Origin: Thermoanaerobaculaceae bacterium
Lineage (GTDB): Bacteria > Acidobacteriota > Thermoanaerobaculia > Multivoradales > UBA5704
Direction of reading: 5' to 3'
DNA: 64,000 nucleotides
Assembly (NCBI GenBank): GCA_963712665.1
Contig: CAVQIV010000024.1
Location: forward strand, 271,525-335,524
Numbering within the stretch: position 1 is the first letter of the stretch; every line of letters starts with the position of its first letter. A model generated the notes under the pieces. It had not been told where the DNA came from, did no database searches, and worked only from the letters and a program-made list of their open reading frames with translations. This document shows positions 5,901 to 55,700 of the stretch, in pieces. Made by a program: the position numbers and the translations under genes.

Positions 5901-6161
5901 TCACCCGAAGGGGAGGCAGGTTGCTGTCCGGATTTTGACCTGTCCCTGACGTCCTTTGCTCTGCTCAGCGTGCTCGAGGACGGCTTCGATCTGCTCGCGG
6001 GTCACACCCGGAAACCAGTCCAGGAAATCGTCCACGCGTGCCCCGTCTTCGAAGTTCTCGAACAGAGCTTTGACGGGCACGCGCGTACCCTTGAAGAGCC
6101 AGGCGCCGCTGACCCTTCCCGCATCCCTTTCAACCGCTGGACACTGATTCCAATCGAGCAT
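5901..6161 (-). CDS. DUF433 domain protein (antitoxin-like HTH)
   Basis: GAWLFKGTRVPVKALFENFEDGARVDDFLDWFPGVTREQIEAVLEH matches the DUF433 pattern. No PIN/DUF5615 partner is adjacent. Confidence 0.7.
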   Translation of the reverse strand: MLDWNQCPAVERDAGRVSGAWLFKGTRVPVKALFENFEDGARVDDFLDWFPGVTREQIEAVLEHAEQSKGRQGQVKIRTATCLPFG

Positions 6162-6307
6162 GGCTCTAGGATAAGGCTTGGGTGCGCACGACGGCAAGCC
6201 CCGGATGGCTCCTCCCCTCCGCGACCGCGTCTAGTGTTGACTACTTACGCGAGATCGGCCACCCCGATGCCCGCTACGCCCCTCCGGGATCGTGTAGGAT
6301 CAACGCC

Positions 6308-6571
6308 ATGGAACCTCCGAAGATCAAGGTCGTGGGTCGGCGCCGAGTCGAGACTCGGTCTCTGGCCGATACGGACCGTCTTCTCCGGACCGCTTGGGCC
6401 CTTCGTGGAACCCCGGCCCTCGTCCCCAAGGGGGTATATCGTTTCCGCAGCTTCGAGGAGGCGGACGAATGGATGACGAGGATGATGGCCAGGACTCACG
6501 TGCGCCAACGATCGAAGATCTCGCCAGGGTCTGCGACTCCCTCAACCGGTCCGAAGCCCAGTACATCCTGA
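6308..6571 (+). CDS. hypothetical small protein (C-terminal GVYRFRSFEEADEW motif)
   Basis: ATG start ORF. It overlaps the next gene by about 100 nt, so its true 3' end is doubtful. Confidence 0.25.
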   Translation: MEPPKIKVVGRRRVETRSLADTDRLLRTAWALRGTPALVPKGVYRFRSFEEADEWMTRMMARTHVRQRSKISPGSATPSTGPKPSTS

Positions 6572-6978
6572 TCGGCGGCTTTGCCGTCATCGCCCACGGC
6601 GCCGGCCGGACGACCAAGGACATCGATTTCCTCATTGATCCGTCGCCCGAGAACGTCGCTCGGGTCAAGGCAGCGCTCAGCGTCCTCCCGGACAACGCCG
6701 GCGCGCTCATCGCCGATACGGACGTCGAGACCTACAAAGTCGTCCGGGTGGCGGACGAGGTGGTGATCGACCTTATGGGAAGCGCCTGCGGCGTGTCCTA
6801 CCAGGATGCGGTCAAGGACGCAGAGGTCCTGGAGATCGAAAGGGTTCAAGTCCCGGTAGCCAGCAAGCAGACCCTAATCCGCACCAAGGAGACGATTCGT
6901 CCTTCCGACCAGATCGATCGGGAGTTCCTGGCAGCATTGATTCGCGAAGAGGGCGCAGAAAAGCGTCCACGCCGGTGA
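6469..6978 (+). CDS. nucleotidyltransferase-fold protein (GG..A...HG..R.T.DIDF motif)
   Basis: YILIGGFAVIAHGAGRTTKDIDFLIDP is typical of small uncharacterised NTase-fold proteins. Codon usage is coherent. Confidence 0.6.
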   Translation: MDDEDDGQDSRAPTIEDLARVCDSLNRSEAQYILIGGFAVIAHGAGRTTKDIDFLIDPSPENVARVKAALSVLPDNAGALIADTDVETYKVVRVADEVVIDLMGSACGVSYQDAVKDAEVLEIERVQVPVASKQTLIRTKETIRPSDQIDREFLAALIREEGAEKRPRR

Positions 6979-6992
6979 TGACGAGATCGACA

Positions 6993-7190
6993 GCCCCGGA
7001 GGGGCGACAGGCTAGAGCCTGGGGCGTGAGCCCCAGGAACGTTGCCCCATAACGATTTCAAGCCCCGAAGGGCCGGCAGAAGATCTCCAGGATGCGGTCC
7101 TCTGCCGCCCCCTCGGGGCTTTGGGTTTGTGGTGGATCCCTTCCTGGGGCTTACGCCCCCAGGCTTCACGCTGCCGCCCCCTTCGGGGGC
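6993..7190. repeat. cluster of at least 6 GC-only stem-loops of two alternating sequence classes (possible structured RNA or REP-like element)
   Basis: GCCCC-gga-GGGGC (6993), CCTGGGGC-gtga-GCCCCAGG (7018), GCCC-cgaa-GGGC (7062), GCCCC-ctc-GGGGC (7107), CCTGGGGC-ttac-GCCCCCAGG (7143), GCCCCC-ttc-GGGGGC (7176). Confidence 0.6.
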
Positions 7191-7274
7191 TGAGATTCGC
7201 CGCGCGCACCCGCGGGGCGTCTAGCGCGTCGGACCGAGGTCGCCGCCCCGGAGGGACCCATCCCAGGCCCCAAA

Positions 7275-7554
7275 GTATATGAACTTTCCCATCCAGTATA
7301 TGGGGCGGCAAAAAATCGAGCGGGTACGCTACTCTCCCTATATGGACTGAGAAAAATTCTATATGGATTGAGCCGTTGGGTGTATGAACAGGGCTCCGCG
7401 AGGGGTGGGGACACCCTCCGGGCAGGGGTGCGAGCGGCTCCCCAGCGTCTCCCGAGGGCTGGTCTATATGGTGGCTCGACGAGTCTATATACTTTGGGTG
7501 CTCCCCAGGCCCTTCAGACGCTCGCGGTATATGATTTTTTGGCGAAGGTATATG
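7275..7554. repeat. phased motif array 1: STATATG on an exact 21-bp lattice
   Basis: Motif starts at 7275, 7296, 7338, 7359, 7380, 7464, 7485, 7527 and 7548. All spacings are multiples of 21 and the spacers are unrelated. Confidence 0.85.
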
Positions 7555-7875
7555 CGGCGGCGGGCTGAGAGGGTGTCGGAGACGTGGCGATTCCGCCCGG
7601 AGGGAAACACCCTTTCCGGACGCCCTCATTCAGACAGGCGGCTCGCTTTTCCCCCTCTCGTGCACACAGTCTTATAGAGCCAGCCCATTAGGATCTGACG
7701 ACGAGTCGGAACCGAAGGATTTCTTGAAACGATGCTCCGGCGTGTCGCGCAGTGCGCTCTCCATTCGGCCGTTCGAGCCGGCAAGATCTCGCCGGCTCAG
7801 CAGCATGGCCCCAGGGTCCCAGCTCTCATGGGGGGAGCTGGCTAGGCCCGGTGGCTTAACTTTTATGGCAGGAGA

Positions 7876-14370: not shown

Positions 14371-14590
14371 AGAGCTCCCCCGCCCAAGACCCTCACCCCT
14401 GCCCCTCTCCCGCCCCCTCGCCACCCCCCTCACCGGGAGAGGGGGCCCGGCTGGAGCTATCTTGCTGTTCGTCCTTGTTGTCCTTGCTGTCCCTTCTGTC
14501 CTTTCTGGCTGTTCTCCCTCTTCTCCCGGTGAGGGGGGTGGCGAGGGGACGGGAGAAGAGGGCCGGGGTGATGAGGGTCTTGGGGGGCGC
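14371..14590. repeat. composite palindromic REP/MITE-like element, copy 2 (about 65-bp imperfect inverted arms, loop with 9-nt GTCCTT repeats)
   Basis: The arms are reverse complements. The loop gttcGTCCTTgttGTCCTTgctGTCCCTtctGTCCTTtct has 9-nt periodicity. Confidence 0.75.
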
Positions 14591-17573: not shown

Positions 17574-20500
17574 TCAATTGCACGGCAGCGCCTCCGTGTC
17601 CAGCACCGGCGGAGCAGCGGTGCCCCTGGGGTTCGTATATGTCTTCGTGTGACCGTTCAACATGTCGGTCACCGTCACCTTCAACCCGACGTCCGTGCCG
17701 GCGGCGTAGAACACCCAGAATTTCTGATTGAACGAGCAGGCGTCGAGCACTTTGATCAGCATCTCCGGATTGTCCTGGCCGAAGAACCAGAAGAGGCCGC
17801 CGCGATTCACTCTCAGGTCGGAGAGTCCGATGGCGTTGCCCTGGCCGGATTGAGCGCTGGCGTCGAACGCGACCTGGACCTTGAAACGCTGAGCGATGCA
17901 CAGCGTGTGAGCGTCGGCCACGCAGGCGGTGCTGGCGTTGCCGATCGCCGGGCCGTCGTTCCCGGCAAAGCTGGTGGGGAGGCCTGTCACAGGAGCGGAT
18001 TTCCCGGCGAGCGCAATGTCGTCCTCCATGCAGGAGAACGCAGCCGTGTCCTGGATCGGCGTCGGGGCCGCGCCGTCCGGATTCGTATAGGTTTTCGTCT
18101 CTCCCGTCTTGCTGTCGCGGACCGTGAGGGTGACGCCGACGTCGGTGCTGGCGGCGTAGAACACCCAGAATTTCTGGTTGAACGAGCAGGCGTTGAGCAC
18201 CTTGACGAGGATCTCCGGGTTGTCGGGGCTGAAGAACCAGAAGAGGCCGCCGGAGCTCACGCCCAGGCGGGAGAGGTGGACGGGGTGGCCGTCGCCTGCG
18301 AGCCCCGCGGCCTTGCGACTGTAGTGGGCGGTGATCTGCCAGCGGCCGTCCCCGGGCTGGTCGTCGAGCGTCAGGACGTTGGGAGCGACGGTCGGATCGG
18401 AGGTGAGGACCGGTCCGGCGCTGATGTGATAGGTGCCGCCCGAGGCCCCGGAGCGGGCGTCTTCGACGCGGGCGATCACGGCATCGCCGCCGATCTCTCC
18501 CGGTTGCAGGACGAAGGCGAGGTAGCCGTTCTCCCGGGGTGAAATGCTCAGGTTTTCAGAGCGGATGAGCGTCCCATCCAGGCGATAGAGCGAGAGGATC
18601 GGGAACAGGCCGAGAACCCGTTCCGTCACGCGCACGGCGAGGGGCTTGCCGCTCGGAATCCCACGGATCAGGAAATAGTCGAGATCGCCGGCGAAAGTCG
18701 ATGCGGCCGGCGATCTTGGTGTTGTCGGCCGGCAGCGGGGTGCCGGTCGGGACGTTCGCATGATCGTCGTCGCCGCTCGCCGCAAGGCCGCTCACGGCGA
18801 CCTGGATCCGGGCCTCGCGCTGGAATTTCTCGCTCACCAGGACCTGCGGGGCTGGAGGGGGCTCGTGGCCGTTGACATCCAAGGCGGAGACGTAGCCCTG
18901 GCGGGCGAAGCTCGCGGTGCCTGCGGCGTTGTCCGCGCGGACGGTGATGCCATAGGTGCCGTCGGCGTCATAGCCGAGGACGAGGGAGTAGATGCCGTCG
19001 CCGGCAACGGCGTCGCCATCGCGGCCGTCGTCATGCAGGGCGACGGTCTCCACAGCGCCTTTGGGATGGGTGATGATGGCCACGACGTTCACGCCGGTGA
19101 TCCGGACACCCTGGCTGACCGTGGCGGTGAGGACGATCGGCTCCGGATAGGTCACGGTGCTGCCGCTCGCGCTCGCCGCCACGAGATCGTAGGTCCGCCC
19201 GATCAGGGGGATGGCATAGACGGTGCCGCTCACGACCACGGGAGCGTCGGAGTTGTTGTACGCGCTGAAGCTCCGGGCTCCGGTCGCGCCGTAGAGCTCG
19301 TTTTGCTCCAGACAACTGCTCGTGCCGTCGACCGACTGGCAGAGGGTGCCGAGCAGCACGGCATAGTACGGGCCTTCGTAGCTGGCCAGCAAGACCTGAG
19401 ACTTCAAGGTGTGGTCGGCCAGGTACGACGTGAGCTCCCCTTGGGATCTGGCGGGAATGCTCGCCGAAAACGACTTGAGCGTGACCATGGAGGAGACCGA
19501 GGACAGGGCGGAGAGGAACGCGCTCTGGATCTCTGAAAAATTCTTCGCCGAGGAGAAGAAGAGGCCGCCGGTGTCGTCGGCGAGCTTGCGCAGCACGCCG
19601 TCCGGCGCAAAGTCGCCATAGCCGAAGGTGATCAGCGGCACGCCGGCCGCCCGGTACTCCTCGGTCACGCTGCTCTTCGATTCCCCCGAGGAGTTGTCGA
19701 GGCCGTCAGTCAGCAGGAAGACGGCGCGGTTGGCCCGGGTCTTGGAGACCTCCCGGTAGTCCTGGAGCACGGTGAGCGCCTGGCTCGCCGCATCGAAGAC
19801 CGCCGACTCGCCGCCTGAGCTGATGCCGCCGATCGTCTGCTTGAAGCTGGTCCGCTGGACCGAGCCGAAGATCGACGTCATGGGAACGTCCTGCCGGACC
19901 TGGTCGTCGAACGACGCCACGCCCAGGACGGTCCGGTCCGCGGGAACGGCGTCGACTACGGTCTTCGCCGCGGCCTTCGCGGCTTCGAGAGGCACACCCT
20001 CCATGCTCCGCGAGCGATCGATCACAAGCTCGAGCTCGAGATCGTCCCCGTCCATCCATTCGATCTCGAGCTCGCTGCGGCAGCTCCCGTCCAGCAGCTC
20101 GCTCAGCCCGTCGGCACCGTGGGATTCCTTGCCGTCGACGTAAACCTCCCACTGGTGCGCGAGCGTGGAGCCGGAAGTCGCGGGATCGTCCAGCAGCTTG
20201 AGGTCCTGGCCGGGCCCCTGGCCGTCTGGAAAGACATCGCCGAAGACGATGTGCCCGCCCGGCACGCCGAACCCCGAAGGCGAAGCCCGGGGATGCTCCC
20301 GCTCGTTCCAGACGACGTCGGCGGAAGCGAAGGCTCCCCGGCGGAAGAGGCGCACCGTGCCGAGCTTGTGGGAGCCGCCGGATGCCTCACAGACGCCGTC
20401 GGCCCAGGAACGGACGATCTTCTCGTAGGCGGTCTGCTGCTCCGAGCCCTTCTCGATGCTCGGATCATTATCCCCGGACGGATCGTTGTAGAGGGAGATC

Positions 20501-20697
20501 GTAACGTCGAAGACGGTCGGCGACCGGACGGACTTCCTACCGGCGCTCAGCAGCTCGGCCGGGCGCTTGGGGGAACGCGACTTGGAGAACCAGGACTGAG
20601 CCGCTCCGAGCCCGCATGGCGCCAGAGTGGCCAGGATCAGGGAGAGCGCGAGCCCCAAGGCGGCTCTCCGCACCGGCTGGGATCCGACGGGATTCAT
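17574..20697 (-). pseudogene. large secreted vWA-domain protein with PPC-like domain and two C-terminal repeat domains, frameshifted as sequenced (one extra base near 18693)
   Basis: Signal peptide. vWA MIDAS region (DRSRSM...LLTDGLDNSS). DLDYFLIRG is PPC-like. A twin domain GGLFWFF..DNPE.L.KVL.AC.FNQKFWVFYAA.TDV occurs twice. ORFs 18556..20697 and 17574..18785 join at NTKIAGRIDF/AGDLDYF. Confidence 0.8.
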
Positions 20698-20859
20698 GGG
20701 CGATCCTTTCTTTCAGGGAAGACCCCCGAAGCTCATGACCTTCCAAGTGTTCTCGGAGACGTTGTACCAGAATGCTGCTACAGCATATTACGCCCGCAAG
20801 CTCTCGTGCAAGCGATGAAGTGATGGCATGAAAGACCTCGACTTCCGTCGGGGCTTTTC

Positions 20860-21311
20860 TGTCGCGACTTCCCCAAAAACGATGCACCTTGCCCATCGAT
20901 GCCGCAACATAAGGATGAGATACGACATCTTAACCATAGATGCCGCATTCTATGCATAGATGCCGCACCATAGCGATAATATGCGGCATTTCTAGCAAAG
21001 TTGTGCGAGAGAATCTTAGGGCGGGACAACTCTCCTAATTCTGCCGCAGACTGACTACAAGTGTCGCGTCATAAGTTCAGCATGAGGTATTCTGCTCGTA
21101 AATGCCGCAATATAATTCTATTTGTCGCAGAGTTCTTGCATTTGCCGCAGAACATCCGGGAAATACCGCAAATTTGCCTCCGTGCTCCGAGCTAACGGAA
21201 GGATGCCGCAATCTATGCGTCGGCTGGGGTTGCGGGCTGGACAAAAAGGGAGATTTCGGGATATTGTCGCAACCTGGAGACTTGTTGACGCATCTCTCGC
21301 CAGACGCCGCA
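20860..21311. repeat. phased motif array 2: palindromic TGCSGCA (TTGC-S-GCAA) sites every 20-21 bp
   Basis: Site starts at 20860, 20900, 20941, 20961, 20982, 21042, 21062, 21103, 21123, 21143, 21164, 21204, 21265 and 21305, which is 14 of 23 lattice points over 22 periods. The tract is AT-rich in a GC-rich genome. Confidence 0.8.
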
Positions 21312-21396
21312 TCATTCCCATCGAGGAGGCGTGGCAGCGAGAGGACGGACCGCCGTGGCGGAGCCCGTCGCAGCGTCTCCTCAGGAGGGAGCGCCG

Positions 21397-21897
21397 ATGA
21401 ATCCGAACCTCTCCGTGGCGCAGATCGTGACCGATCTGGAGACGCAGATCGCGCATTTCCAGAGCCAGGAGGCCTTCCACGCTCAGCAGGAGGCCTTCCA
21501 CCGGGAGCAGCGGGAGCTCAACGCGGCCGAGCTGGCGAGCGTACGCGAGCGCTACGAAGCCTTCAAGACCGCGGCGCAGGCGGTTTCCGAAGCCGCCGAC
21601 CGCGCCAGCCAGGTCATCCGCGCCCGGCAACTGGAGGAGGACACGAGCCTGCGGATCACCACCGTCAGCAAGCTGATCGCCCGCGTGGTGGAAGCCAAGC
21701 CCGAGCACGAGACCTTCGGTCCCACGGCCGTGGCTCAGGAAGTCAACGCCCGTTTCGGCAAGAAGCTCCGCCGCCCCCTGGACAGCCGCGCCGTCTCCGT
21801 CACTCTCCGGCGAATGGAGAGCGACGGGCGGATCCATCTCGTGCAGAAGGGGAGGGCGTTCCACGAGGCGGTGTACACGCGGGAACCCTCGACGTGA
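21397..21897 (+). CDS. hypothetical protein, N-terminal coiled coil plus C-terminal winged-helix-like region
   Basis: AGGAGGGA SD 7 nt before the ATG. The C-terminus SRAVSVTLRRMESDGRIHLVQKGRAFHEAVY resembles a wHTH wing. It lies directly downstream of array 2. Confidence 0.6.
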   Translation: MNPNLSVAQIVTDLETQIAHFQSQEAFHAQQEAFHREQRELNAAELASVRERYEAFKTAAQAVSEAADRASQVIRARQLEEDTSLRITTVSKLIARVVEAKPEHETFGPTAVAQEVNARFGKKLRRPLDSRAVSVTLRRMESDGRIHLVQKGRAFHEAVYTREPST

Positions 21898-24134: not shown

Positions 24135-24260
24135 GGAGCAAGGACATAAAGGACAGCAAGGACAGAAAGGACGACAAGGACGTCAAGGACACGGGGGATC
24201 GTACCAAGTCCGGTATTTTGTCGTCCCTGCAGTCCTTGTTGTCCTTGCTGTCCTTTCAGC
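24135..24260. repeat. long hairpin built from 9-nt-periodic AAGGAC repeats (likely bidirectional terminator, related to the REP loop at 14461-14510)
   Basis: The left arm AAGGACataAAGGACagcAAGGACagaAAGGACgacAAGGACgtcAAGGAC pairs with the right arm GTCGTCCCTgcaGTCCTTgttGTCCTTgctGTCCTTt. It lies between convergent genes. Confidence 0.8.
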
Positions 24261-39812: not shown

Positions 39813-40601
39813 ATGGCCCGTATGTCCGCGTTTCCTCTCCAGCGCGATGTCGAATACCCGGAATCCGACGGCCAGCCCATGGCGGAGACAGACCTCCATC
39901 GCGACGAGATGTTCGACCTGATCGAGGGGCTCGCCCTCCGGTACCTGAACGTGCCGGACATCTACGTCAGCGGCAACCTCTTCTTCTACTACGTGCAAGG
40001 GGACCCGCGGGCGGTCGTGGCTCCCGATGTCTTCCTCGTCCGGGGTGTGCCCAAGATGAAGCGAGGGACCTACAAGCTCTGGGAGGAGGGCCGCGTGCCT
40101 TCCCTGGTCATCGAGGTGACGTCGGACAGCACGAAGGACGAGGATCTCGACAAGAAGAAGTCGGTCTACCGGCGCCTGGGAGTCGAGGAGTACTTCCTCC
40201 ACGATCCCTGTCAGAACTATCTGAGTCCGCCCCTGCAGGGTTACCGTCTCGTGAACGGCCGTTATCAGCCTCTCTCGCCGCGCCCGGACGGCTCACTGCG
40301 CAGCCGGATCACGGGGCTGGACCTCCATGTCGAGGGCCAGAAGCTCAGGCTGGTAGATGCTGTCACGAACAAGCCGTTGCCCTGGGGAGAGGAGTTGACA
40401 GCAGCCTTGAACCGCGAAACGGCTGCCCGTGAGTTGGCAGAGGAGCGTGCCAGCAGGGCAGAGGAGCGTGCGAACCGGGAAGCCGCTGCTCGCGAGCTGG
40501 CAGAGGAACGCGCCAACCGGGAAGCCGCTGCCCGGCAGTCCCTGGAAGAGGAGTTGAATCGTCTGCGACGTGAGATCGAGGGGAAGCAGAGATCCGAGTA
40601 G
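39813..40601 (+). CDS. Uma2-family (DUF820) restriction-endonuclease-like protein with repetitive coiled-coil tail
   Basis: ESDGQPMAETDLHR..., VAPDVFLV and PSLVIEVTSDST..D...K...Y motifs. The tail repeats AARELAEERANREAA. Confidence 0.85.
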   Translation: MARMSAFPLQRDVEYPESDGQPMAETDLHRDEMFDLIEGLALRYLNVPDIYVSGNLFFYYVQGDPRAVVAPDVFLVRGVPKMKRGTYKLWEEGRVPSLVIEVTSDSTKDEDLDKKKSVYRRLGVEEYFLHDPCQNYLSPPLQGYRLVNGRYQPLSPRPDGSLRSRITGLDLHVEGQKLRLVDAVTNKPLPWGEELTAALNRETAARELAEERASRAEERANREAAARELAEERANREAAARQSLEEELNRLRREIEGKQRSE

Positions 40602-40631
40602 ACCGTACGCAGCATCGCGCCCTGACTTTCT

Positions 40632-41099
40632 GCTGCAAATCACCCTCGGCGGTCCATAGGCCCCGCTCCCTGGCTATCCCGCCTCCTCTCGTGTGCCGCA
40701 AGCATCGATCTCCCGATCGCCGGACCCGGCACGGCCTCCTCGGGCCTCGAGAAAAGTGTTGCAAATTCCCTTGATTGGAAGGCGGGTGGCCTTCTGTGAG
40801 CCGCAAGACCCACGAATTCTGTTGCAAATCCTCTCCATGAGAAGGCGAACTCACGGGGCGAAGTCGGCTGATCCGGGAATTTCGCGGCAAAATCCTGGGA
40901 TTTTGCGGAAAAAGCGAGGACATACGCGGCAGTTTACCTGTCTTTTGCGACAAAATACTAGAGTTTCGCAGCAGACTGGAAGGGTCGAGCTTCAGGACCC
41001 AAGGGTCTTGCAGCATAATCCATGGGTCTTGCAGCTCACTGCATGGAGCCCCATGGCTGACTTGGGGGATTTGCGGCAGATTTCTCACAGTTTGCAGCA
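40632..41099. repeat. phased motif array 3: TTTGC-N-GCAAA-type sites on an exact 21-bp lattice
   Basis: G(C/T)NGCA cores at 40632, 40695, 40758, 40800, 40821, 40884, 40905, 40926, 40947, 40968, (40989), 41010, 41031, 41073 and 41094. All offsets are multiples of 21 over 22 periods. The tract lies between convergent genes. Confidence 0.85.
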
Positions 41100-52722: not shown

Positions 52723-55700
52723 ATGGAAGCCTCACCCAAAAAGAAAAGGCCGCCCCCCAAGCCCGCCTCCAGGAAGCGCCGCGAGCCGCGGCAGCCGGAC
52801 GTGACCGAGCCGGCCGGCGATTCCTCGCACTACTCCTTTCCCATCGTCGGTATCGGGGCCTCCGCCGGCGGTCTCGAGGCCTTCCGGCAGTTGCTGCAAA
52901 ATCTGCCCGCGGACACCGGCGCGGCCTTCGTCCTGGTGCAGCACCTGGACCCCAAGCACGAGAGCATCCTGCCCGCGCTCCTCGCCCGCGCCACCACGAT
53001 GCCGGTGGACGAGGTGCGGGACAGCGTGAAGATCGAGCCCGACCACGTCTACGTGATCCCGTCTCACATGGACCTGGCGATCGCGGAGGGGCACCTGAGG
53101 CTCTTGCCGCGGACGGTGCCGCCGGACCGGCACATGCCGGTCGACCTCTTCTTTCGCACGCTGGCGGAGGCTGAAGGCGGCAAGGCCATCGGGGTGGTCC
53201 TTTCAGGGACCGCTTCCGACGGCACCCTGGGGCTCGAGGCGATCAGGGCCGCCGGCGGCATCTGCCTGGCGCAGGACCCGCAGTCCGCCGGGTTCGACGG
53301 CATGCCGCGCAGCGCCATCGCGGCGGGCTGTGTCGACATCGTCCTGCCTCCCGACGGCCTCGCCCTGGAGATCGCGCGGCTGGTCAGCGGCTCCTACCTC
53401 CGGCAGCCGCGCGGCGAGCCGGCACACGAGGAGCTGCTCGCAGCCGAGCGGGGTGGTCTCGAGATGATCTTCGCGCTGCTGAGGAAGGCCACGGGCAGGG
53501 ATCTCGCCGGATACAAGAAGCCGACGCTGTTGCGCCGCATCCGGCGGCGCATGGCGCTCTGCCAGAGCGAAGGGCTCGCGGACTACGCCAGACGTCTGGA
53601 GAGCCACCCCGCGGAGGTCCAGGACCTGTATCAGGACCTGCTGATCAACGTCACCTCCTTCTTCCGAGACCCGGAGGCCTTCGCCGCCTTGTGCCGGGAC
53701 GTGCTCCCGCGGTTGCTGCAGGACCGGCCCGCCGACGCGCCGTTCCGGGTGTGGGTGCCCGGCTGCTCGACGGGCGAGGAGGTGTATTCGATCGCCATCT
53801 GCCTCCTGGAGAGCTTCGACGGCCTCAACGGCGGGCCGCCCATCCAGATCTTCGGCACGGACATCCGCGACGGCGCCGTGGAAACGGCGCGGGCCGGGAC
53901 CTACCTGGAGAACATCGCCGCCGACGTCTCTCCCGAGCGCCTGGCGCGCTTCTTCGCCAAGGCGGACGGCCACTACCAGGTGATCAAGGCCATCCGCGAC
54001 GTGTGCGTCTTCGCCCGCCACGACCTGATCCGGGACCCGCCCTTCTCCCGCCTCGACCTCATCAGTTGCCGCAACGTCCTCATCTACCTCGAGCCCGTCG
54101 TGCAGCGGCGGGTGATGGCCAACTTCCACTACGCCTTGAATCCCAAGGGCGTCCTCGTCCTGGGAAGCTCGGAGACGGCCGGCGGGTCATCCGACCTGTT
54201 CCTGCCGGTCGACGCGAGCACAAGGTCTTCGCCCCGGTAGAGAGGGTGGCCCACAGCGTCCCCGGCCCCGGCGCGGGCACCTACCGGGAGGGGCCGTCTT
54301 CGGCACCCGGGCGAGCCGTCACCCGCGACGCCGGGGACCGCGGCGACGTGCAGCGGGAGGCCGACCGGATCCTGCTCAGCGGTACGGCCCGGCGGGCGTC
54401 CTCGTCGACGAGAACCTGGACATCCTGCAGTTCCGCGGCGACACCCATCCCTACGTCGAGCACGCGCCCGGCGACGCGAGCCTCAGCCTGCTCCGGATGA
54501 TCCCGAGGGTCTGCTGGCCGGGCTGCGCGAGGCGATCCAGGAGGCCCGGGCCACCCGCGCGCCGGTCCGCCGGCAGGGACTGACGTTCCGCCACCACGAA
54601 AGTTTCCGCAGCGTGGACATTGAGGCCGTCCCCGTCCAGGGGCGTTCCTCCGGACAGCTCTGCTTCCTCGTGCTCTTCTCGGAGCCACCAGACGTCCAGC
54701 GGGGACCGGAGCAACCCCCGCCGACCCTCCCCAGGCGAGAGGCGGACCGCCAGATCGCCCACCTGGAGCGCGAGCTGGCGTCGACCCAGCAGTACCTGCA
54801 GGCCGTCATCGAGGACCAGAGCGCCGCCAACGAGGAGCTGCAGGCCGCCAACGAGGAGATCCTCTCCAGCAACGAGGAGCTGCAGAGCCTCAACGAGGAG
54901 CTGGAGACCGCCAAGGAAGAGCTCCAGTCGAGCAACGAAGAGCTCAACACGCTGAACGAGGAGCTGCAGAACCGCAACCTGGAGCTGGACCTGCTCGGCG
55001 ACGACCTGATCAACCTGCTCTCCAGTCTCCACATCCCGGTGGTCCTGCTGAGCCCGGACCTGCGCCTGCGCCGCTTCACCCCCGCGGCCGCGCGGCTGAT
55101 GAACCTCCTTCCCGCGGACGTCAACCGGCCGCTGAACGACATCCGGCCCAACTTCGACCTGCCCAGCCTGGAGGTGGCGATCCTGGAGGCGATCGAGACC
55201 GTCACCCTGATCGAGCGGGAGGTCCAGGACCGCCAGGGGTGCTGGTACTCGCTGCGCATCCGGCCCTACAAGACCCGGGATAACCGGATCGACGGCGCGG
55301 TGATGGTGCTGGTGGACGTCGACGCCCTGAAGCGCGGCGCCGTGGAGGTTGCCGAGGCCCGCGACTTCGCGGACGCCATCATCGAGACGGTGCGGGAGCC
55401 TCTCCTCGTGCTGGACGCGGAGCTGCGGGTGGAGAGGGCGAACCGCAACTTCTACGACTCCTTCCGGGTGCGGCGGGAGGAGACGGAAGGCCGGCTCCTC
55501 AAGGATCTGGGCAACGGCCAGTGGAACGTCCCCGAGCTGCGCGAGGCGCTGCGGTCCATCCTCGCGGACGACCACGAGATCCAGGATTTCGAGGTGGAGC
55601 GCGAGATTCCCGCAGATCGGCCGCCGGACGATGGTGCTCAATGCCCGCCGGGTGCGGCGGGACGGTCGCGGAGCGGAGAAGATCCTGGTCGCCATCGAGG

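Follow-up and report, generated by a model that had tools for sequence, protein, structure and literature searches.

In a 64,000-nucleotide stretch of the genome of a Thermoanaerobaculaceae bacterium (contig CAVQIV010000024.1, positions 271,525 to 335,524 of the forward strand; hereafter the window), a 699-bp divergent intergenic region (20697-21397) holds a phased array of short DNA sites, array 2, upstream of a gene encoding a 166-residue protein. With moderate confidence, and on comparative sequence evidence, we propose that array 2 is a cis-linked binding array of this protein (the reader, encoded at 21397-21897) and that the two form a stand-alone array-plus-reader module. An earlier note on this DNA had suggested the downstream coiled-coil/winged-helix protein as the cognate binder of the array, and comparison of genomes strongly supports this suggestion while falling short of proof: the array accompanies the gene in 46 of 70 loci, the neighbouring genes are unrelated, and the word repeated in the array varies with the clade of the protein. 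The gene family and phased arrays are linked across many genomes irrespective of the genes around them. The features of the locus are the following.

18556-20697, minus strand: vWA gene (Pfam VWA, E = 1.4e-18)
20860-21372, plus strand: array 2, about 18 of 26 lattice positions occupied, 20.25-bp period
Core of array 2, plus strand: (A-g-A)-T-G-Y-C-G-C-A-(a-c-a-T-A), in the sense of the downstream gene, the sole inverted site being at 20982
20860, 20900, 20941, 20961, 20982, 21042, 21062, 21103, 21123, 21143, 21164, 21204, 21265 and 21305: main sites of array 2
20880: weaker on-lattice site, gATGCAcc
20921: weaker on-lattice site, TACGACA
21286: weaker on-lattice site, TGACGCA
21366: weaker on-lattice site, CGTCGCA, 31 bp 5' of the ATG
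21238-21265, plus strand: candidate sigma-70-like promoter, TGGACA-16-GATATT, inside array 2 with lattice sites on both sides
21383-21388, plus strand: Shine-Dalgarno sequence AGGAGG, read from the sequence, 8 nt 5' of the ATG
21397-21897, plus strand: putative reader gene, 166 residues, ATG at 21397

Array 2 is statistically real. The exact heptamer TGCSGCA occurs 8 times in 20860-21311 (452 bp) and 24 times in the remaining 63.5 kb of the window. The corresponding expectation for the array is lambda = 0.17 (Poisson P = 1.5e-11), and first-order Markov simulations of the region (n = 20,000) yielded a mean of 0.14 copies and a maximum of 3. The gaps between the 14 main sites are 40, 41, 20, 21, 60, 20, 41, 20, 20, 21, 40, 61 and 40 bp. 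The best period is 20.25 bp, with a phase coherence R of 0.996 for the 8 exact sites and likewise for all 14, whereas sites placed at random reached at most 0.983 (8 sites, 5000 trials) or 0.84 (14 sites, 2000 trials). The 20-21-bp phasing described in the earlier note is therefore upheld, and neither the simulated nor the randomly placed controls gave a comparable periodicity or number of sites. An unbiased 5-mer phase scan over the whole window returned R values of ~1.0 at three places only, namely array 2, array 1 (TATATG, 21.0 bp, 7277-7556) and a coding heptad repeat at 54.5-55 kb. The AT-richness of the tract was likewise confirmed, the GC content of the array 2 region being 49-56% against ~68% for the window. 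An independent assembly from another sample (Logan ERR11593391, L195) contains the same 711 bp with a single substitution.

Some details of the initial description had to be amended. All 14 positions listed there hold a core-like heptamer; three of them, however, lie outside the four forms that had been named, having been misread (20860 and 21062 are TGTCGCG, and 21305 is CGCCGCA). The spacers, described as unrelated, are mostly so, except that A/g/A is conserved 5' of the core and T-A four bases past GCA. Because of this flanking conservation the site is ~14-17 bp long. The main correction concerns symmetry: the site had been called a palindrome, and it is directional. The centre base is C in 12 of 13 cores, only the site at 20982 being inverted, and the T variant is confined to core position 3 (TGTCGCA/G, four times). 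The mirror form TGCGACA has no exact copy in array 2, its nearest counterpart being the degenerate TACGACA at 20921. Nor are the flanks symmetric (A-g-A precedes the core and a-c-a-T-A follows it), and the arrays of relatives bear clearly asymmetric words, e.g. ACACCGCAAA.TC, TTTGGCGCAACGT and CCACCGCGACATAAG. The resemblance to a KorB/ParB-type operator is consequently one of form only. The KorB/ParB operator OB, TTTAGC-S-GCTAAA, has a GC-S-GC-centred dyad that is also found in the 7-bp TGC-S-GCA of array 2, but it is an isolated, near-perfect palindrome of 13-16 bp, whereas the sites of array 2 are directional and set on a lattice. Scans with Pfam and NCBIfam found no ParB or KorB domain in the reader protein or its neighbours.

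The position of the array between the minus-strand vWA gene and a gene with a strong Shine-Dalgarno sequence was confirmed by the VWA match and by the AGGAGG 8 nt before the ATG. The start of the reader gene was fixed by the N-terminus MNPNLS, conserved in 42 homologs, and its GC content at third codon positions (GC3) is host-like. A promoter consensus scan gave 2 overlapping matches, against 0.2 expected in shuffled sequences, and these are matches to a consensus only. As judged from the sequence comparisons given below, the vWA gene is an incidental neighbour of array 2.

Homologs of the reader were sought at several depths. Among 90%-identity protein clusters 121 were found, and all the named ones come from Thermoanaerobaculia or from Acidobacteriota metagenome-assembled genomes (MAGs). 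A profile search of 1.84 billion representatives recovered 449 clusters (50% identity) at E <= 1e-3 and 305 at E <= 1e-10, nearly all of 160-175 residues and of the same architecture. A scan of one genome per species yielded 68 loci, all from Thermoanaerobaculia, Holophagales or Acidobacteriota. From these searches the reader family appears confined to Thermoanaerobaculia/Holophagales (Acidobacteriota). Many genomes hold 3-4 reader paralogs, and several of the loci lie in chromosomes of 7-8.8 Mb. A plasmid origin was rejected, since blastn with the array and tblastn with the protein against 72,556 plasmids gave no match; so was a phage origin, no relative of the reader being found in a scan of IMG/VR viral contigs and no match among PHROG families. 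Exact-sequence look-ups of the window protein with two alternative starts returned no record.

To call an array by a strict criterion, we asked for a 5-mer present in 6 or more exact copies, with a coherence of at least 0.95 and a period of 19.5-21.5 bp. Under these conditions an array was found within 700 bp upstream of the gene in 42 of 70 loci, and downstream only in 3 of 70. At distances beyond 1.2 kb from the gene, 49 out of 8169 windows (0.6%) qualified, and nearly all of these were GC-rich coding sequence. A matrix-refined caller recognised a well-defined array in 46 of the 70 loci (41 upstream, 3 downstream and 2 over the start). These 46 arrays comprise a median of 9 sites (range 5-20) over a median span of ~380 bp, with periods grouped at 19.8-20.3 and 20.7-21.0 bp; 15 of the 41 upstream arrays stop within 60 bp of the start codon. 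The genes around them differ from locus to locus: when 1011 flanking open reading frames (ORFs) were clustered all-against-all, no family was present in more than 6 of 67 loci, and the same clustering revealed no linked nucleoside triphosphatase (NTPase) motor (ParA, ParM, TubZ) or other partner.

Orthologous regions were compared for retention of the lattice. The ortholog at L003/L004 (family loci are given L numbers), 76% identical and flanked by PEMT upstream and a kinase downstream, is preceded by GATATGYCGCA on a 20.25-bp lattice, and the ortholog L196 (81% identical) keeps the last three sites with 20-bp spacing. Other orthologs adjoin CHAT/Uma2 and further unlike genes. Because the array recurs with reader orthologs amid unrelated neighbours, it belongs to the reader gene rather than to the vWA gene. 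Some relatives (L033, L065) have true 20-bp tandem units. A metagenome scan for TGCCGCA-N13/14-TGCCGCA-N13/14-TGCCGCA returned at least 120 loci, almost all of them coding 21-bp repeats from unrelated organisms, with no family member among the matches listed. Two further phased non-coding arrays were seen in related genomes, either distant from the family gene or next to a truncated copy: AAAGTCC at 20-21 bp (L044, 1489-1676), and ten 21-bp tandem units ATCGTCKCGATGGACRCTCAC (L073, 1837-2090), ~500 bp upstream of a gene fragment.

The words repeated in the arrays fall into classes that follow the recognition-helix clades of the adjacent proteins. The core words were distributed among the loci as follows.

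Window and L007: ATGCCGCAAC
L003, L008 and L030: ATGTCGCA
L014, L015 and L053: ATGCGGCATC
L038 and L047: ACACCGCAAA
L055 and L059: TTTGGCGCAAC
L057 and L062: GTTGCAA
L033: CCACCGCGAC
L036, L049 and L066: AAAGTGACGCGAC

The recognition-helix signatures correspond to these words:

ASD: CCGCAA / CCGCGA
SVAATLRRW: TCGCA
LSVCLRR: ATGCGGCATC
VSAALRR: TTTGGCGCAAC
VS[MV]HLRR: GTTGCAA

Most words share the anchor G-C-R and a T four bases later, with variable bases 5' of the anchor. Paralogs of a single genome, SMAG_U5499, carry words that differ from one another (ATGTCGCA, TTACCGCAAT, ACACCGCAAA and CTGCCGCA). When the YGCRA anchor was oriented by eye, about 36 arrays ran in the sense of the gene, 2 were inverted (L065 and L026) and 4 were ambiguous; an automated orientation test with an anchor regular expression was confounded by the pseudo-dyad of the core.

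The reader protein itself was modelled as a monomer with AlphaFold2 (predicted local distance difference test, pLDDT, 86.9). The predicted elements are listed below.

Residues 7-83: long N-terminal helix
After residue 83: linker of low AlphaFold2 confidence, variable between homologs
C-terminal winged helix: H90-100, H109-120, recognition helix H130-142 and wing 147-161

Invariant residues across the homologs are S6, H28, H35, R36, S134, R139, G152, A158 and Y160, and the N-terminal helix is conserved more strongly than the DNA-binding domain, even across paralogs with differing DNA words. A 21-bp tandem duplication within the gene (21466-21510) encodes the heptads QEAFHAQ-QEAFHRE, which contain the invariant His28, His35 and Arg36. 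Reading the heptads by eye places H28 and H35 at core positions of the coiled coil, in register with V7, L14, F21, V49, F56 and V63. The histidines of these heptads suggest that the coiled-coil core may bind metal or haem, or be special in some other way. The E25 and E32 residues of the QEAFH heptads are not invariant.

Foldseek against the PDB retrieved only generic winged-helix DNA binders (best E 3e-3), namely the Fur DNA-binding domain, MarR/OhrR, RTP, the Orc1 winged helix, PadR and the DUF3253 structure 2ns0, which ranked ninth (E = 0.016). Pfam DUF3253 (PF11625) matched the reader at 22.9 bits for a cut-off of 22.1 (E = 1e-4), over residues 90-154 only, and a precomputed DUF3253 match was present in 4 of the 120 homolog clusters listed. 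PADLOC gave a weak match to the AbiEi winged helix (E = 3e-4). A PDB sequence search and scans with NCBIfam and PHROG gave no match to the reader protein.

The palindrome of array 2 had also been said to recur 20 kb away, in array 3. As a site, if not as a palindrome, it does: matches to the array 2 matrix scoring 9 bits or more are concentrated in two places only, 20.5-21.5 kb (19 matches) and 40.5-41.1 kb (8 matches). The features of array 3 are as follows.

40631-41098, no strand assigned: array 3, between convergent genes, on a 20-21-bp lattice
40631, 40694, 40757, 40800 and 40820, plus strand: left sub-array
40883, 40904, 40925, 40946, 40966 (uncertain), 41008, 41028, 41072 and 41091, minus strand: right sub-array
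39.7-40.6 kb: Uma2 gene ending at 40601 (Pfam, 6.5e-18) on one flank
41189 and 41546: ends of minus-strand ORFs on the other flank

Array 3, located 19.5 kb away, is on this sequence basis probably an additional, orphan target of the reader. When the window was searched with tblastn, no reader paralog turned up beside array 1 or array 3. A Uma2 gene borders not only array 3 but also the downstream array of the ortholog locus L005/L008 (4939-5712), which may be coincidence.

We can outline how such a module might operate. One winged helix would bind each directional site of ~14 bp, recognising the G-C-R anchor, the T four bases on and 2-5 variable 5' bases. The N-terminal helix would pair or bundle the subunits, and a flexible linker of ~20 residues would allow the two DNA-binding domains of a dimer to reach sites 20-21 bp (~68 Angstrom) apart. 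Since this spacing equals two helical turns, all the sites would lie on the same face of the DNA, and ~7-10 dimers could coat that face cooperatively over ~500 bp. The coat would span the promoter and leader of the reader gene itself, and autoregulation would therefore be the most immediate consequence. The promoter-like element within array 2 and the many arrays that reach the start codon support autoregulation. Candidate uses of the coated locus include regulation or titration, tethering or pairing of the locus, and signal sensing via the invariant His-lined helix.

Carried further, these modules could be a new class of sequence-addressable nucleoprotein elements of the chromosome, a picture that we regard as possible, if doubtful. 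Each paralog would write a filament of ~0.4 kb on its private and orphan arrays, and the His-lined N-terminal core (H28, H35), common to the paralogs, would serve either for docking or as a switch of oligomerisation sensitive to metal, haem or redox state. The addressed loci would be tethered, paired or silenced on one signal, and the arrays would be private "locus tags" distinct from ParABS, plasmid iterons and ordinary operators.

A number of points weigh against the proposed pairing of array and reader. About a third of all loci have no clear array, and the clade with the recognition helix KLVSI(V/T)L(R/K)R (L028, L031, L034, L061, L063 and L069) is mostly devoid of a detectable one. In the closest relatives of the genome collection, L007 (74%) and L008 (67%), the array is found downstream, between convergent genes. 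Because the arrays of L007/L008 and array 3 sit between convergent genes, promoter occlusion is not the whole function. A residue-to-base code was sought by comparing recognition helices with core words, and only a clade-level correspondence emerged. This correspondence could reflect co-inheritance rather than direct readout, because gene and array duplicating together would give the same pattern. The oligomeric state and the bridging of adjacent sites by a dimer are suggested by a monomer model, and the promoter is a candidate called by its match to the consensus. Finally, the source lineage is uncultured and MAG-derived.

The main rival sees in the array a centromere-like site or one for tethering, the coated DNA being docked through the conserved N-terminal helix (H28, H35, R36) to a shared partner or to another array, for segregation, anchoring or pairing, in the manner of single-protein plasmid partition (pSK1 Par) or of RacA/RocS-type anchoring. 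We judge it unlikely, and it is kept alive because the array is independent of position and the N-terminal helix is better conserved than the DNA-binding domain. Like centromeres with respect to par genes, arrays can precede or follow the gene, and orphan array 3 is placed between convergent genes, where an operator would make little sense. The conservation of the N-terminal helix above that of the DNA-binding domain, across paralogs with differing words, would fit a common partner. However, the loci belong to chromosomes of Mb scale, each with 3-4 paralogs, for which additional partition sites would be superfluous; the searches of plasmids and viral contigs found no relative, and linkage to a partner gene is absent from the 67 loci clustered. 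Moreover, no membrane-binding or DivIVA-type motif was identified, and the reader has no homology to Par, RacA or RocS.

A close parallel to such a tethering system is pSK1 Par of Staphylococcus, whose direct-repeat array reportedly lies upstream of its own gene. Like the reader gene, the par gene of pSK1 is a stand-alone gene for a winged helix-turn-helix (HTH) and coiled-coil protein, with linked repeats and without an NTPase partner. The combination of winged HTH and coiled coil is shared by pSK1 Par and the chromosome anchors RacA and RocS (PMC11500499, PMC4914108). The module described here parallels them with its winged helix and coiled coil, a repeat array at its own gene and no NTPase. 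The differences are nevertheless numerous. The order of domains is reversed with respect to Par/RacA, the coiled coil being N-terminal here and the winged helix C-terminal. pSK1 Par has a DUF536/C-terminal helix module and is carried by a plasmid, whereas the reader has neither a Pfam match beyond the borderline DUF3253 nor a plasmid homolog; its modules sit in chromosomes, and each genome has 3-4 diverged paralogs. The repeats of pSK1 are contiguous 12-bp units, unlike the 20-21-bp lattice with unrelated spacers found here, and the reader protein lacks a C-terminal membrane helix.

In the ParR/parC (R1) and TubR/tubC (pBtoxis) systems, small proteins cooperatively coat phased direct repeats upstream of their own gene and repress their own operon; the coats form a filament or superhelix, TubR is a winged-helix protein, and the arrays can be split into blocks (PMC5016525). 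Such coating is also a precedent for the array-plus-reader module proposed above. The two opposed sub-arrays of array 3 resemble such parC-type split centromeres (PMC5016525), which again speaks for a tethering site. But ParR/parC and TubR/tubC have a linked motor (ParM, TubZ), whereas none is linked to the reader; ParR is a ribbon-helix-helix protein and the reader a predicted winged-helix one; and the periods of parC and tubC are 11-12 bp, against 20-21 bp here, where the plasmid context is also absent.

A second rival, which we consider quite improbable, supposes that another factor, such as a nucleoid-associated protein or a global regulator, binds the arrays, which would then be the promoter architecture of the family while the protein would not be their reader. 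The association of gene and array is indeed positional only, no residue-to-base code emerged from the comparison of helices and words, and arrays 1 and 3 have no family gene beside them. On the other hand, a single factor cannot account for paralog-specific words that, in one genome, go with the clade of the neighbouring protein, and that protein is itself predicted to have a DNA-binding fold. The arrays are not simply promoter architecture, because some of them lie downstream of the gene.

Iteron-type replication control is very improbable. In this explanation the array would be the origin or handcuffing site of an integrated or cryptic replicon, with the winged-helix protein as an initiator-like factor. 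Iterons (those of P1 RepA incC/incA, RK2 TrfA and lambda O) are direct repeats about two turns apart in AT-rich DNA with the gene of the binder adjacent, and their specificity differs between related replicons. Array 2 shares the direct repeats phased at 20-21 bp (20.25 bp, R = 0.996) in an AT-rich tract beside the gene of a winged-helix protein, an adjacency found in 46 of 70 loci, and the true 20-bp tandem units of L033 and L065, as well as arrays before and after the gene that recall P1 incC/incA, add to the likeness. The conserved core, however, is only 7-14 bp long, there are up to 20 sites, and several copies occur per Mb-scale chromosome. The protein combines a single winged helix with a coiled coil instead of the WH1-WH2 Rep fold, without a match to a Rep family in Pfam, NCBIfam or the PDB. 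In addition, plasmid and phage homologs were not found, no replication, partition or mobility genes are linked, and the GC3 of the reader gene is that of the host.

A transcribed RNA element in a long 5' leader, or a decaying functionless minisatellite, is scarcely credible: although most arrays lie upstream in the same sense as the gene and some relatives have true tandem repeats, the fold energy is ordinary (z = -1.46), no Rfam family matches apart from a chance mir-322 hit (E = 0.044), the 20-21-bp period matches two turns of the DNA duplex, a few arrays (L065, L026) run opposite to the gene, array 3 mixes orientations and lies between gene ends, and the conservation of the core while the spacers diverge argues for selection on the sites rather than slippage.

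Returning to the proposed array-plus-reader module, two further systems show comparable readout. P2 C repressor dimers read direct repeats two turns apart (PMC2995052) and BldC multimerises head-to-tail on direct repeats (PMC5859096). They use 2-4 sites, against 9-20 in the arrays described here; their folds differ from that of the reader, P2 C having a lambda-like HTH and BldC a MerR-like domain, without a long coiled coil; and they are not paralogous gene-plus-array modules. Homology to the known systems compared here, a motor and a plasmid context all being absent, the module is a member of none of these families.

The remaining repeats of the window were also recorded. Array 1 (7277-7556), with the word (G/C)TATATG(R), lies in a non-coding tract of 1 kb, its sites set on an exact 21-bp lattice, and is without the family-wide GCR anchor. 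Array 1, its surroundings and the other repeats are described by the following features.

5901-6197, minus strand: DUF433 gene (E = 1.7e-13), just before array 1
6394-6978: weakly AbiEii-like nucleotidyltransferase ORF (E = 1e-4), just before array 1
6992-7037, minus strand: Acido-Lenti-1 small RNA (Rfam RF01687; 52.5 bits for a gathering score of 37), just upstream of array 1
7040-7260: several GC-rich hairpin-like repeats after the Acido-Lenti-1 small RNA
7277, 7298, 7340, 7361, 7382 (TGTATG), 7466, 7487 (TATATA), 7529 and 7550: sites of array 1
14471-14507: four GTCCTTGnn units nested between inverted G/C-rich arms (14400-14440 and 14520-14555)
24137-24258: six tandem 9-bp nnnAAGGAC units, a gap of ~25 bp and four inverted GTCCYTGnn units, forming a long imperfect hairpin
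54796-54986: coding 21/42/63-bp tandem repeat, consensus CTGCAGGCCGCCAACGAGGAG, encoding coiled-coil heptads

The DUF433 and AbiEii-like genes are of the toxin-antitoxin type, as is AbiEi, which the winged helix of the reader matches weakly in PADLOC. The 9-bp-unit repeats at 14471-14507 and 24137-24258 are of a different type from the phased arrays. The coding repeat at 54796-54986 is perfectly phased at 10.5/21 bp and would mislead any scan for phased motifs as a false positive.

To our knowledge, a small DNA-binding protein that coats a repeat array linked to its gene has been described almost only in plasmids and phages, the arrays being centromeres and iterons. Our literature search found no paper on DUF3253 and none treating iterons together with Acidobacteria. 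What is new here is the proposed chromosomal, stand-alone, paralog-diversified array-plus-reader module, which is undescribed and occurs in a poorly studied, uncultured soil acidobacterial lineage. Under our interpretation, hypothetical proteins forming a family of 449 clusters (at 50% identity) acquire a concrete role open to experiment, as does a DUF3253-like winged helix. If the pairing is confirmed, the family would provide a natural set of orthogonal protein-DNA address pairs on a simple two-turn lattice, of use in synthetic biology, and a tractable case of divergence in winged-helix specificity. It may also represent a new route to the tethering or silencing of bacterial loci.

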